This document shows, piece after piece, positions 11,873 to 18,695 of a stretch of 64,000 bases of DNA. Position 1 is the stretch's first letter. Every line of letters begins with the position of its first letter. Where the stretch lies: the NCBI RefSeq assembly GCF_051903065.1, contig NZ_CP178438.1. One strand, given 5' to 3'. The DNA is from Escherichia coli (GTDB taxonomy: Bacteria > Pseudomonadota > Gammaproteobacteria > Enterobacterales > Enterobacteriaceae). The notes beneath the pieces were generated by a model. The model had not been told where the DNA came from. It searched no databases and saw nothing but the letters and a program-made list of their open reading frames with translations. The translations under genes were made by a program, and so were the position numbers.

Positions 11873-12134
11873 TAGCGAAAATTGATTGTGCCATCCAATG
11901 ATTATCTATGGCAATGATTTACTGATGAAATTTATTTAAGTATCATTTAACAATATGAAATATATAGAAATTTTTAATTTTCAGTGGTTATGGTTATGCT
12001 ATTGATAATCAAGGATATTGCTAATGCCCTGACGCATACCACGTATGCCAGGATTTTCGCAAGGGAAGATGATGATGACGAAACACCCAACAGGAATTTA
12101 TGTCGGGTGTCTTGTTAAGGCCATAAGAAGGAGG

Positions 12135-12740
12135 CTAAGACTGGAGCAAAGAGGGCGTGTTATTAATTATTCTCCATTTGTTTTGCAACTTCTGGAATAA
12201 TTCAGGCAAGAAAGTTTCTGTTAGCGGAATACCATCCTGAGCATCAGTATTGGAATAGACACCAAAGCGTGCGGGCGCTCGACCGGTCATTATTGCGGCG
12301 CGGGAGGGGCCGGAAACACCGTGTGCCACATAGCCGTTAGTAAAACGTACGCCTTCATCCATTAATGAAAGGAGCGTCGGCGTTGATTTTTGTGCAGCTT
12401 CAATGGCTTTATCTATCCCTATTTTGTAGGTATCGACAACTTCACGATTTTCCATTGTTTTTGGGTCAAAAGATCCCTTATCAAAAGGAAGTTGTCCATA
12501 ACCAAGATCATCCATGGTTAGTACGATAATATTTGGCTTTCCTTTGGTACTGTATTCAGTCGGCGTAAAGTCTGAGAAAGCAACGTTTGTTTTGGTTGCT
12601 TTCAGCTTTACATCATCTGCCGCATGAGCAGCAAATGCAGCCATACCAGATGCCAGTATCAAAGATATCGAGGTACTTACGACACTTTTCTTTAATGCAG
12701 ACTTCATAAATGTTCCTCTTCTTATTGTACTTAATTCCAA
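12135..12740 (-). pseudogene. ydeN: Sulfatase (ydeN-like) N-terminal fragment, truncated after about 180 codons
   Basis: 201-aa ORF with signal peptide and sulfatase N-terminal core (IIVLTMDDLGYGQL); C-terminal tail diverges and stops. Full-length sulfatase is about 560 aa. Confidence 0.6.
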
Positions 12741-13039
12741 AGTAATTTTACGAAGAGAAATAAGTGGATGTAAGTGAAGTTAGTCACATAAAGAGATAGC
12801 AGATTTAGCTAAAAAAAGGGAAATAACAGTCCATAAAGCGTTGACATTACTTTCTGTTCTACTAAGTAATTTCTCGCCGATAAACAACTAATATATTGAT
12901 ATTTAATAAATTATTGTATTTTACTGACAAAATGCCGAATTGAGATCATAAATAATCATGCAACAGGTTATGCAAATGCATAAATATGTGATGAATGTCA
13001 CTTATTTATTTCAATAAATATATCGCCTAAAAACAACGC

Positions 13040-13060
13040 GGGGCAGGGAATGACTGCCCC
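13040..13060. terminator. Bidirectional rho-independent terminator downstream of ydeO
   Basis: Stem ggggcag/ctgcccc with 7-nt loop, flanked by T-runs on both strands. Confidence 0.5.
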
Positions 13061-13110
13061 ATTTTTAATTTTTAAGTAGGGTGCGTGGTTGACTACTCGT
13101 TAGCAAATAA

Positions 13111-13872
13111 TCAAATAGCTAAAGCATTCATCGTGTTGCCCGTATTCATACCCATGTGACTTTGACAACGGTACTCCTTAGAAACTCTCTTCGGACTGTT
13201 GCCGAAATGTTTGCGGAACGCATAAATAAAATAAGATGTACTGGCATAACCACATTGTTCGGCAATTTTATTGACTGAACCTTCTACGCGTATCAAATTT
13301 TTTGCGTGCTGCATTCTGGCATCTAATAGAATCTGTGAGAATGTCGTTTGCTCTTGCTTTAGTTTTTTCTTCAACAGGCTTTCACTGATGTACAGGCAGT
13401 CACAAATATCTTTCAGCTTCCATGGGTGCGCCAGCTTCATGTTGACAATATTTCTCACTTTCCCGGAAACGGATAGCACACCGTTAGTTAATAGTGTAAT
13501 GAAACCTTTGCATGCGGCAAATATAGACAGGCAAGAAAAAAGCAAAAGTTCTGAAAAATTATGATGATTGCGTTCTTCCGAGTTGAGATAAGCAATCATT
13601 TCATTAAGCAATCCAGTCGGTACATTTGAAGCACGTAAAAACTTCGCAGGAACAGGCACCGTCACTGTCTGGATGTTAGTGCATTGTAGATATTTTTTAA
13701 TGGTATTTTCATTAAATCCGATTTCTTTAAAATGCCGCTCATAAGGTTCAAAATGTGTACGAACAGCGTTATCTACCATCAGGATCTCGCCGTCAGAGAA
13801 GGCGTAATCTTTATCTAAAATGTTAGCGTTGAAAGCATGATGAATAAATATAACAGAACAAACGAGCGACAT
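13111..13872 (-). CDS. ydeO: AraC-family acid-resistance regulator YdeO
   Basis: 253 aa; C-terminal AraC HTH; position after safA. Confidence 0.9.
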   Translation of the reverse strand: MSLVCSVIFIHHAFNANILDKDYAFSDGEILMVDNAVRTHFEPYERHFKEIGFNENTIKKYLQCTNIQTVTVPVPAKFLRASNVPTGLLNEMIAYLNSEERNHHNFSELLLFSCLSIFAACKGFITLLTNGVLSVSGKVRNIVNMKLAHPWKLKDICDCLYISESLLKKKLKQEQTTFSQILLDARMQHAKNLIRVEGSVNKIAEQCGYASTSYFIYAFRKHFGNSPKRVSKEYRCQSHMGMNTGNTMNALAI

Positions 13873-13945
13873 TTTATCTCCTTAAAACAATAAAGTTTTA
13901 TCGATACTTTTTTAACATTTCATATTTATAATTTGCTGTTTATTT

Positions 13946-14143
13946 TCAGTCTTGCAAACTATTGATAATGAAATGTGTAAGATCTCTTGCAATGCGACCC
14001 ATTTCTGAAATACCCAGCTGATCAATTGCCGAAAAAATGGCTATCAACGTAAGTGTCAGTAATAAGACAACCACAATTACAGACATGATTTCTTTATAGT
14101 TGTCTCTTTGTGTGATTTTATTTTTCACTGTGGTCGCATGCAT
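13946..14143 (-). CDS. safA: Two-component connector SafA (small membrane protein)
   Basis: 65-aa ORF with single TM segment, recognised sequence. Confidence 0.85.
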   Translation of the reverse strand: MHATTVKNKITQRDNYKEIMSVIVVVLLLTLTLIAIFSAIDQLGISEMGRIARDLTHFIINSLQD

Positions 14144-14255
14144 TTCAAATATGTTTATTTAGCGGATAACGTTAAAAATCGTTAATCAGTATGCTTAATA
14201 TAACAGGCTGGAAAAAAGAGGAAATAGGACTGGTGCTTCAGTACTGAGCGGAGTT

Positions 14256-14273
14256 TCTTACAGCTGTAGGCAG
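14256..14273. promoter_or_regulatory. EvgA box upstream of safA-ydeO
   Basis: TTCTTACAgcTGTAGGCA matches the 18-bp EvgA inverted-repeat consensus TTCYTACA-N2-TGTARGAA with one mismatch. Confidence 0.6.
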
Positions 14274-14390
14274 AAGTTTAAATCTTATAGTATGTAGTTT
14301 AATTTAATCCATGTGAGCAAATTGCGCGATAATAGTCAATGAGGAATTCTTCTGCTGTGCGGATGACAGCAGAAGAAATGAGAAGAGGCA

Positions 14391-14554
14391 TTAATTTGAT
14401 GGTTCTAATTCAACCGGAATACTTTTATAGCCAGGAATGCCACTTAATGGATCGTGGTTATCAAGTGTTAGCATGTGATTCGATTCTGGAAAATAGGTCA
14501 CCAGTGAGCGGTCAGCCATAGGGTAAATGACCACTTTTAATCTATCCATGCGGC
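14391..14554 (-). pseudogene. ydeP: ydeP 3' remnant (last 51 codons plus stop) separated from the gene body by IS1
   Basis: Hand translation of the minus-strand frame continuing across the TSD gives [55 protein letters not shown]; 708 + 51 = 759 aa, the expected YdeP length. Confidence 0.75.
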
Positions 14555-14609
14555 GGTGATGCTGCCAACTTACTGATTTAGTGTATGATGGTGTTTTTGA
14601 GGTGCTCCA

Positions 14610-14885
14610 GTGGCTTCTGTTTCTATCAGCTGTCCCTCCTGTTCAGCTACTGACGGGGTGGTGCGTAACGGCAAAAGCACCGCCGGACATCAGCGCTATC
14701 TCTGCTCTCACTGCCGTAAAACATGGCAACTGCAGTTCACTTACACCGCTTCTCAACCCGGTACGCACCAGAAAATCATTGATATGGCCATGAATGGCGT
14801 TGGATGCCGGGCAACAGCCCGCATTATGGGCGTTGGCCTCAACACGATTTTACGTCACTTAAAAAACTCAGGCCGCAGTCGGTAA
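14610..14885 (+). CDS. insA: IS1 InsA
   Basis: 91-aa [26 protein letters not shown]..., zinc-finger CxxC...CxxC. Confidence 0.95.
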
Positions 14886-15307
14886 CCTCGCGCATACAGC
14901 CGGGCAGTGACGTCATCGTCTGCGCGGAAATGGACGAACAGTGGGGCTATGTCGGGGCTAAATCGCGCCAGCGCTGGCTGTTTTACGCGTATGACAGGCT
15001 CCGGAAGACGGTTGTTGCGCACGTATTCGGTGAACGCACTATGGCGACGCTGGGGCGTCTTATGAGCCTGCTGTCACCCTTTGACGTGGTGATATGGATG
15101 ACGGATGGCTGGCCGCTGTATGAATCCCGCCTGAAGGGAAAGCTGCACGTAATCAGCAAGCGATATACGCAGCGAATTGAGCGGCATAACCTGAATCTGA
15201 GGCAGCACCTGGCACGGCTGGGACGGAAGTCGCTGTCGTTCTCAAAATCGGTGGAGCTGCATGACAAAGTCATCGGGCATTATCTGAACATAAAACACTA
15301 TCAATAA
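14804..15307 (+). CDS. insB: IS1 InsB (expressed as InsAB' by -1 frameshift)
   Basis: 167-aa ORF overlapping insA in the -1 frame. Confidence 0.9.
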
Positions 15308-15322
15308 GTTGGAGTCATTACC

Positions 15323-17447
15323 CCATGCGGCGTGAGCTGCGCTTACCGTCTGGCGTAAGCGCAATAAGATTAACTCTTTCGCCGTTTTTTACACGGCAAA
15401 TTTTAGCTTGTTTAGCACTCATAAAGACCACATCTCGTTGACCGAATACCCCTCGATAGCGATCATCCATACCATAAATCGTCGTGTTGTACTGATCGTG
15501 GCTGCGTACTGTCGCCATGACCAGCTTACTGTTAAACGCTGAAGAGGGATCTTCTAACAGCCCTTTGCTGGTAATGAAATTAGCCTTACCTGACGGCGTC
15601 ATCCAGCGCCTTTCAGCAGCTGCATTTATCAGGTGAAAACCACCGGGATGACGGATGCGCTGGTTATAGTCGGCGAACTCTGGCAGCACAGCTTCAATGT
15701 CGTTGCGAATGCGATCATAATCTTCCACCAGATACTCCCAGGCTACCACGCTCTGGGGTAGTGCTGCCTGTGCGATTCCCGCGACCACTGCACACTCTGA
15801 TTTCAGCATTACACCGGCGGGTTTTAACACGCCACGCGAGGCATGAATCATCGACATTGAATCCTCAACGGTTACCGCCTGCGCACCGCTTTTTTGCATG
15901 TCAATCTCGCTACGTCCCAGAACCGGCAGAATATAGCTATGCCGTGCGGTCAGCAGATGAGAGCGGTTAAGCTTAGTGGCTACGTGTACCGCCAGATCTA
16001 ATTGCGTTAACGGTACAGCGCTCGCTTCCCGATCTGGCATTGCCAGTGCAAAGTTGCCCCCCATGCAGATCAATGCTCGAGCCTGCCCTGTACATATTGC
16101 TTGCATGCTGGCAATTGCAGCATGTCCAGGTGCTTGAGGTGGTGTGAAGCCATAGCGCTCACCCAGGCGAGCCAGAAACTCTGCAGACGGTTTCTCGGTG
16201 ATACCGACGGTTCGGTCGCCCTGTACATTAGAGTGGCCACGTAGTGGGCAGATACCCGCACCAGGCTTGCCAATGTTACCTTTCATCAACAGCAGATTGA
16301 CCAGTTGCTGTACATTCTGGGTACCATGTTCGTGCTGAGTGATCCCCATTCCGTAACAGATAATGGTTCGTTCGGCAGCGGCATATGCATCAGCCAGTTC
16401 GGCGATTTGTGTCTGACTTAGTCCAGAAATACGTTCGATATCTTTCCACTCGGAATTGAGCACGTCACGGCGTAGCTCGTCAAAGCCGACGGTATGCGTT
16501 TGAATAAATTCGTCATCCAGCAATGAGGGCCGACCTGCGGCGCTTGCAGCATCATCGCGCTCAATTAACAGGCGCATCATCCCCTTGAGCAACGCCATAT
16601 CACCACCAATGCGCACGTTATAGTAGGCACTGGCCAACTGAGTCTCAGAGTTCGTCAGCATTTCAAACGGGTTTTGCGGTGCGGTAAATCGCTCCAGGCC
16701 ACGTTCCTGTAGAGGATTGATGGCGATCATTTTCGCTCCCCGTTTCACTAAAGCGCGCAACGAAGTCAGCATGCGAGGGTGGTTTGTACCAGGGTTATGC
16801 CCAATGCAAATGACTAAATCGCACTTCTCAAAGTCTTCCAGCAACACGGTCCCTTTACCTACACCGATACTCGCTGCCAAACCCACGCTTGTCGGTTCAT
16901 GGCACATGTTGGAGCAGTCGGGAAAGTTATTGCTCCCGTATTCACGGGCAAAAAGCTGATAAAGAAAGGCAGCCTCATTGGAAGTGCGGCCCGAAGTATA
17001 GAATTCAACCTGATTGGGATCACTATAGCTTTGAAGGCGTGCGCCAATTTCATCGAAAGCTTGTTGCCAGCTTAATGGCTTGTAACAGTCGCTGACGGCA
17101 TCATATTTCAAAGGCTGAGTGAGTCGCCCCGCAGCCTCAAGCTCGTGGTCTCCCCAGGTAAGTAATGATTGAACCGTATTCTCAGCAAAGAAAGAGGCGT
17201 TTACCTGCTTATCCGTGACTTCCCAGGCGATTGCTTTTGCGCCGTTTTCACAAATGTCGAATGACGCACTGTGCTTAGGATCTGGCCATGCACAACCCGG
17301 ACAGTCAAAGCCCTCTGGCTTATTCATGTCAAACATGGCAATAACATCCTGGCGTATATCCATCTGCTTACGTACTGCATTCGCTACGGATTTAACAGCA
17401 CCCCAACCACCGGCAGCTCCCTGGTAGGATTCAATTTTTTTCTTCAT
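15323..17447 (-). pseudogene. ydeP: ydeP (molybdopterin oxidoreductase, acid resistance) 5' part, truncated by IS1
   Basis: ORF 15318-17447 encodes the first 708 residues of YdeP and then terminates on a stop codon supplied by the IS1 end. Confidence 0.85.
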
Positions 17448-17690
17448 CTACTTATCCTGTGTGGAAATGAATTATTAGGATTTGTAATAGCGATGATGCA
17501 CAGTACATACAAAGGGATTATCGCCAACATGGATATATAAGAGTAGGGGACTACTCTCTTTCTATTTTTAATCTATTATCGTTAAACAATAGATTAAATA
17601 CGATAAGGTAAGCATCATCTCTCATAGTGTTTAAATTAACATATTTTTTAATATAAAAAATAAGACTCTGGCTTCAATTGTGCGCGGATT

Positions 17691-17710
17691 TTCTTACAGG
17701 TGTAGGATAA
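17691..17710. promoter_or_regulatory. EvgA box upstream of ydeP
   Basis: TTCTTACAggTGTAGGAT(AA) matches the EvgA consensus; about 245 bp upstream of the ydeP start. Confidence 0.6.
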
Positions 17711-17780
17711 TAGCCTTCACAAAATAATTATCCGCGCAATTTTCGTGAATGGAGCGCATAGACCAATGTCAAAATCACAA

Positions 17781-18695
17781 TTATTCATAGATAAAAGTGA
17801 CACCAATGACTGACTGGACGGTTCCGGCTGAAACCTTGTTTCCTGTTTGTCCATAGGTTGCGCTTAAACCCAGAGGTACTTTGCTTTTATTTACTGTCCC
17901 CAGGGAGACATTTTCTCCCGTAGCCAGTATTTTTCCATTACGCATCAGAGAGACACCCACTCCCGATGCTTTTGTTGCATCTGGTGCTGTGTTAGCAAAC
18001 ACTTGTCTAGCACTGTCAGTGGTAGCACCCGAAAGATAAAATGAGAGCTTTTGTTCACTTGAGCAATATACGCCAAGGGGGATTTCTGCGCTTCCAGGAA
18101 AGTCCGGGAGATTCACGGTGACATTACGACTATCAACAGTGCAGCCGCCTGTTGGCATAACAACACTGTTATTTGAAATAATATTCCACGTAAAATTACG
18201 CGGATTTCCGCTTCCTAACGTGGCAATTTTATACATATGAATACGGGCAATAACTTCCCCGGCTTTTATGACAACTCCACCGGCCGCCCCGACTGGGGTA
18301 ATATAGAGTTTTAACGGTAATGGCATCGGTGTCTTATCACCAATATCCAATACGTTTGTATTTGTCGTCAACGGGAAGGGGTAGGTCACATTATTCCAGT
18401 ACAGCGATCCTTTATATGACTGTAGAGAGCCTGCGAAAGCTGAGCCTTGTACCAGGTTTATATGATCAGTGTCGTACCAGCCGCCGTAATCATTCCAGCA
18501 ACTTATATGCTGAGACAAGTCTACAACCAGATTCTGGCCCGGCTGTATTACAGGGTCGAGATTAACATAAACAGAGGTTGTACCAGCTCCAATACTTGAC
18601 CCGCCATCGACATTACAACTGAAGGCAAAAACTTTGCCTGCCATTAATAGAAGATAAATACCGAACAGGACCTTTATACTGATTGTTTTACCCAT
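17781..18695 (-). CDS. ydeQ: Fimbrial tip adhesin, FimH-like (YdeQ/FmlH-type)
   Basis: 304-aa ORF with signal peptide; last gene of the chaperone-usher operon. Confidence 0.8.

Follow-up and report, generated by a model that had tools for sequence, protein, structure and literature searches.

Does the short inverted repeat that lies ahead of safA in this E. coli genome act as the site through which EvgA controls the safA-ydeO operon, and how much of the neighbouring promoter sequence belongs with it? EvgA is a response regulator of the NarL/LuxR family that binds as a dimer to inverted repeats and is phosphorylated by EvgS in mild acid. Of the two genes downstream, safA encodes a membrane connector that activates PhoQ, and ydeO an AraC-family activator of gadE and of further acid-resistance genes. 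A functional site would be the point where the EvgS/EvgA acid sensor switches on two acid-resistance branches, one leading from YdeO to GadE and the glutamate decarboxylase system, and the other from SafA to PhoQ/PhoP and RpoS.

Published work bears directly on the question. The genes safA and ydeO are co-transcribed (PMC5706723, PMC9496106), the operon is controlled by phosphorylated EvgA (PMC5706723), and direct binding of EvgA to its promoter is given in a review citing Itou et al. 2009 (PMC9496106). There is an EvgA binding site at every gene known as directly EvgA-regulated (PMC4283999). Induction at pH 5.5 is described for a P_safA-gfp fusion, on which PhoP and YdeO have a further modulating effect (bioRxiv 10.64898/2026.05.06.723403). 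Both safA-ydeO and evgAS are restricted to E. coli, and many natural EvgS alleles do not respond to pH (PMC5706723).

We put at roughly 90% the probability that the 18 bp at 14255-14272 would bind a dimer of phosphorylated EvgA and drive the safA-ydeO promoter, with binding and induction taken from the literature. The first-pass annotation had also proposed an EvgA site here. That reading is supported by the identity of the box to K-12, by its membership in a motif family, by its rank under a position weight matrix (PWM), by its selective conservation and by the literature on direct binding. The site before safA-ydeO is an already described cis-element, intact and the same as in K-12, and there is nothing new in the site itself. 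It is useful for annotating the locus correctly, and it can serve as a positive control when raw sequence is read for motifs. It also tells us that this strain keeps the cis-element of the EvgS/EvgA circuit although the adjoining acid-resistance gene, ydeP, is broken by an IS1.

The box and the genes it precedes

By the window we mean the whole 64-kb stretch of DNA that was analyzed. The features needed here are the following.

13111 to 13872, minus strand: ydeO, 253 aa with an AraC-type HTH, three substitutions relative to K-12
13946 to 14143, minus strand: safA (b1500), 65 aa, Pfam PF17073 at 1.1e-47, three substitutions relative to K-12
14255 to 14272, minus strand: EvgA box, reading TGCCTACAGCTGTAAGAA in gene orientation

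Both safA and ydeO are full length, without truncation. The gene order ydeP-safA-ydeO is that of K-12 MG1655, and the relevant genes are all on the minus strand. A tblastn search of the 64-kb window finds neither evgA nor evgS.

We compare the box to TTCYTACANNTGTARGAA, the EvgA 18-bp consensus attributed to Itou et al. 2009 and Masuda & Church 2003. We re-derived it independently from the K-12 regions around known EvgA-activated operons. On the plus strand the box reads TTCTTACAGCTGTAGGCA at 14255-14272. The first-pass annotation had it one position too far along, at 14256-14273, a span that reads TCTTACAGCTGTAGGCAG. The single mismatch to the consensus that it reported is correct, and it is a C for an A at position 17, in the safA-distal half-site. 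The promoter-proximal half-site, TGTAAGAA (14255-14262), matches the consensus perfectly, and the mismatch makes the distal half-site, TGCCTACA (14265-14272), imperfect. The two arms are complementary at 6/8 positions, and with that one mismatch the box fits the 18-bp inverted repeat TTCYTACA-NN-TGTARGAA.

The box is in the non-coding region upstream of safA. Its proximal edge is 111 bp from the ATG (the A is at 14143), so that it occupies nucleotides 112-129 upstream with its center at 120.5, and an earlier estimate of about 115 bp is acceptable. The other EvgA boxes are found 98-269 nt from their start codons.

The motif family in K-12

In K-12, the 18-bp repeat is present upstream of emrK, frc, yfdX (two copies), yegR and ydeP, all of them known to be EvgA-activated. 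The individual boxes compare to the consensus as follows.

emrK/evgA intergenic box: TTCTTACGCCTGTAGGAT, two mismatches
frc box: TTCTTACAACTGTAAGAA, no mismatches, a perfect palindrome
yfdX boxes: two, 38 bp apart, with one and three mismatches
yegR box: TTCCTACATAAGTAGGAA, one mismatch
ydeP box in K-12: two mismatches

The 20 kb of K-12 that hold evgAS-yfdX contain four matches, when 0.28 are expected. In gene orientation, the proximal half is TGTAAGAA-like in all the K-12 sites except yegR, which has TGTAGGAA, and it is the distal half that is degenerate. The K-12 boxes of emrK, frc, yfdX and yegR resemble that of safA in having TTCYTACA-NN-TGTARGAA in the intergenic DNA ahead of the gene and, beginning 51-54 nt past it, a -10-like hexamer. 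Their flanks, on the other hand, are unrelated to those of safA, except for AGTCCT at +24 to +29 in emrK. And scores comparable to those of these boxes are confined to emrK, frc, yfdX, yegR, ydeP and safA in a search space made of the 64-kb window and 43 kb of K-12 loci.

Could a different regulator of the LuxR/NarL family, such as GadE, RcsB or NarL/NarP, be what recognizes the repeat? The 7-2-7 architecture of NarL-family sites is generic, and TAAGAA resembles part of RcsB-type boxes. But the literature assigns the binding to EvgA. As the members of the motif family are just those of the EvgA regulon, we regard recognition by another such regulator instead of EvgA as very improbable.

Rarity of the motif

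How often should one expect to find such a repeat? Allowing at most two mismatches to TTCYTACANNTGTARGAA, both strands of the 64-kb window contain two matches, against an expectation of 0.03 obtained from 100 dinucleotide-preserving shuffles, of which none (0/100) reached two matches. The match other than the safA box is at 17691-17708, upstream of ydeP. If three mismatches are allowed, the window still has two matches versus 0.69 expected, and 18 of the 100 shuffles have at least two, which is not above chance. Since the consensus count at three mismatches is not significant, the significance of the motif comes from the scan that allows at most two mismatches, from the PWM and from conservation.

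The PWM was built in leave-one-out fashion from six K-12 sites of the EvgA regulon, with the safA box excluded. Scored over both strands of the window (128,000 positions), the safA box is the top 18-mer at 26.4 bits; the ydeP box scores 26.3 bits, and the next match, unrelated to EvgA, falls to 9.5 bits. The maxima in 50 shuffles average 13.6 bits, and the highest of them is 22.2 bits.

Proposed mechanism and promoter geometry

Poor -35 elements combined with an extended -10 are typical of activator-dependent promoters. The elements that we propose for safA are these.

14197 to 14205, minus strand: putative extended -10 TGTTATATT, with the hexamer TATATT at 14197-14202
14189 to 14190, minus strand: predicted start of safA transcription, 7-8 nt past the putative -10

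In the mechanism that we propose, mild acid would lead EvgS to phosphorylate EvgA through the EvgS/EvgA phosphorelay. Phosphorylated EvgA would then occupy the safA box and activate a weak sigma-70 promoter that has a poor -35 and, presumably, the extended -10 TGTTATATT. Activation would be that of an upstream (class-I-like) activator, possibly with additional contacts in the conserved 36 bp that follow the box.

The placement of the -10 is consistent with the other promoters. The TATATT hexamer begins 53 nt after the safA box, -10-like hexamers begin 51-54 nt after the box across six promoters (emrK, yfdX, yegR and frc among them), and the TGTTAATTT of ydeP is exactly as far from the ydeP box as TGTTATATT is from that of safA. 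With this placement, the transcript would begin around 14189-14190, which puts the box center near -73.5 and leaves an untranslated leader of about 47 nt. The literature searched offers no usable mapped start site for safA.

A second geometry comes from ydeP. An in-vitro RNA polymerase SELEX lists TTGAAG-16-TATATT as a "constitutive" sigma-70 promoter of ydeP (PMC3946193). The pair is at 17650-17677, that is, at +14 to +19 and +36 to +41 after the ydeP box, where it overlaps the sequence shared with safA. At the corresponding positions safA keeps CTGAAG, and it has TCTTTT in place of the -10. The ydeP SELEX pair would put the box center near -57, which makes the box-to-start geometry uncertain: from the sequence we place the center between about -57 and -74, most likely at -73.5. 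With either geometry, the predicted position of the box is upstream of the core promoter, like that of a class-I-type activator.

Two other candidates were rejected. The pair TTGAAA-17-AAAAAT (14148-14120), which lies over the safA start codon, was considered as the safA promoter; it comes from a generic sigma-70 scan that gives one match versus 2.7 in shuffles. That generic scan missed the extended -10 promoter because its -35 is poor. As for the PhoP repression site that has been reported at P_safA, there are three matches at three mismatches near safA (14141-14188) that are no better than chance, as a scan for KGTTTA-N5-KGTTTA with at most three mismatches gives 202 matches when 172 are expected.

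Identity to K-12 and conservation among strains

The safA box is identical to that of K-12 MG1655 (NC_000913.3, 1,584,071-1,584,088). It is the same 18 bp, at the same distance from the ATG, as the EvgA site of b1500 (safA)-ydeO described in K-12 (Masuda & Church 2003; Itou, Eguchi & Utsumi 2009). The ydeP-safA intergenic region has the K-12 length of 247 bp and differs from it at 4/247 positions, none of them in the box or the -10. What sets this locus apart from the K-12 one is the IS1 that interrupts ydeP 283 bp ahead of the box, and a partial loss of ydeM/ydeN beyond ydeO.

Of 5,426 complete E. coli genomes, 5,374 have the intergenic region, with an identity of 89-100%. An alignment of ten sequences (the window, K-12, and eight strains picked down the identity ranking) has the following variability.

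63 bp upstream of the box: 21/63 columns variable
EvgA box: 2/18 columns variable
38 bp after the box (+1 to +38): 4/38 columns variable
Extended -10 TGTTATATT: 0/9 columns variable

Within the box, variation is limited in these ten strains to one N of the spacer and to the outermost base of the imperfect distal half. This is the pattern expected for a functional activator site plus its promoter.

These results also bear on whether the repeat could be a chance palindrome without any function. It is short, its arms are imperfect (6/8), and the count at three mismatches is not above chance. Against that, there are two matches at up to two mismatches where 0.03 are expected, both of them before EvgA-regulated genes, and both the selective conservation and the top leave-one-out PWM rank exclude chance as well. 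We give a functionless palindrome next to no weight.

A module shared with the ydeP promoter

If the 18 bp are an EvgA site, is the EvgA-responsive element larger than the box? The question arises from a comparison of the two promoters in the window that have one.

17691 to 17708, minus strand: second EvgA box ATCCTACACCTGTAAGAA, before ydeP, 244-261 nt from the ydeP ATG, 26.3 bits
14219 to 14254, minus strand: conserved stretch +1 to +36 after the safA box, common to the ydeP promoter

The ydeP box has the same motif as the safA box, with the same proximal half TGTAAGAA, and it is followed at the same offset by TGTTA(T/A)(A/T)TTAA, which is TGTTATATTAA in safA and TGTTAATTTAA in ydeP. The two differ in the distal half (ATCCTACA in ydeP vs. 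TGCCTACA in safA) and in the leader, which has 244 nt from box to ATG in ydeP and 112 in safA; and only ydeP has the good extra pair TTGAAG-16-TATATT. When the promoters are anchored at the box, identity is 15/18 in the box itself, 25/36 without gaps over +1 to +36, and 9/11 over +50 to +60. Over +1 to +60 as a whole, 38/60 positions are identical, a value reached by none of 20,000 shuffles. Ahead of the boxes, in contrast, the two promoters are unrelated over 40 nt (8/40).

The conserved stretch after the safA box includes TCCGC, the palindrome TCAGTACTGA (14238-14247), TGAAGC (14235-14240) and AGTCCT (14226-14231), this last one recurring at the same offset in emrK. The order of elements is the box, TCCGC, TGAAGC, AGTCYTATTT and TGTTAWWTTAA. 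The two promoters have a module of about 78 bp in common (14195-14272 vs. 17631-17708), which suggests that an EvgA-responsive promoter was duplicated or that the functional element is larger than the 18-bp box. The stretch at 14219-14254 may hold further contacts for the activator (EvgA) or for RNA polymerase, which published footprints may already cover.

At the virulence promoters of Bordetella, BvgA, a homologous response regulator of the NarL/LuxR family, likewise binds as a dimer. Its sites are inverted heptad-like repeats (TTTCCTA-like) ahead of the -35, with more dimers on weaker sites towards the promoter. NarL-type 7-2-7 sites are comparable in the same way, but organism and regulon are others than here. 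By analogy to BvgA, one could propose that the EvgA-responsive unit is this entire module, which a duplication would have placed before both genes, with EvgA contacts of lower affinity in the 36 bp, and that the IS1 leaves the safA module as the sole EvgA route in this strain. We offer this larger unit tentatively, and consider it on balance rather doubtful.

The TCAGTACTGA element is a perfect 10-bp palindrome with its center 21 bp, two helical turns, downstream of that of the box, and it is invariant in the ten strains. Its ydeP counterpart, near the same place, is CAATTG. It could be a site for a secondary regulator, and feedback by EvgA, YdeO and PhoP has been reported at P_safA.

Possible read-through from ydeP, and the IS1 insertion

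The remaining features belong to the region between the two boxes.

14347 to 14377, minus strand: hairpin directly after the ydeP stop, with a 12-bp perfect stem TTCTTCTGCTGT / ACAGCAGAAGAA
14555 to 15322: IS1 (768 bp), within the 3′ part of ydeP

It could be argued that the safA box does bind EvgA, with a minor role, and that safA-ydeO is controlled mainly by read-through from the strongly EvgA-activated promoter of ydeP, the three genes forming one ydeP-safA-ydeO operon. Such an operon is named in one paper (PMC11052181). Moreover, a scan for intrinsic terminators does not report the hairpin that follows ydeP, which lacks a clear U-tract. The safA box, the next 36 bp and the extended -10 are, however, clearly constrained, and for the box and the -10 read-through cannot account for this. 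In addition, P_safA fusions are acid-induced on their own, and reviews give safA-ydeO its own EvgA-bound promoter. In this strain, transcription from ydeP would also have to cross the IS1 in ydeP. We consider control mainly by read-through improbable, and favor EvgA acting at the safA box; in K-12, read-through from ydeP may add to safA-ydeO expression.

The hairpin itself has a folding energy of -17.6 kcal/mol (z of -4.3), and 0/32 of its columns vary in the ten strains. Transcription of ydeP is probably kept apart from that of safA by this hairpin, but weakly, for want of a clear U-tract; it would be either a weak terminator or a 3′-end stabilizer. An Rfam scan of 12800-18000, with E-values up to 1, reports no RNA family.

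The IS1 is flanked by a 9-bp target duplication, CCATGCGGC, at 14546-14554 and 15323-15331. It cuts YdeP after residue 708 of 759, within the C-terminal molybdopterin-dinucleotide-binding (Molydop_binding) region. The ydeP-IS1 junction is present in 0/5,426 complete E. coli RefSeq genomes, and the exact truncated YdeP is found in one NCBI assembly only, GCA_036912935.1, where the contig breaks off at the IS. The window has a second IS1, at 31959-32726, that is 99.9% identical to the copy in ydeP.

Beyond ydeO, at 11873-12740, ydeM and the 3′ part of the sulfatase gene ydeN are deleted, with a breakpoint near 12190. Homology to K-12 resumes at 12190, inside ydeN, and a 201-aa ORF that is the remnant of ydeN adjoins yddA. 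A 501-bp stretch over the deletion junction has a 100% match in only 2 of the 5,426 complete E. coli genomes, those of 23CRST027 and 23CRST031.
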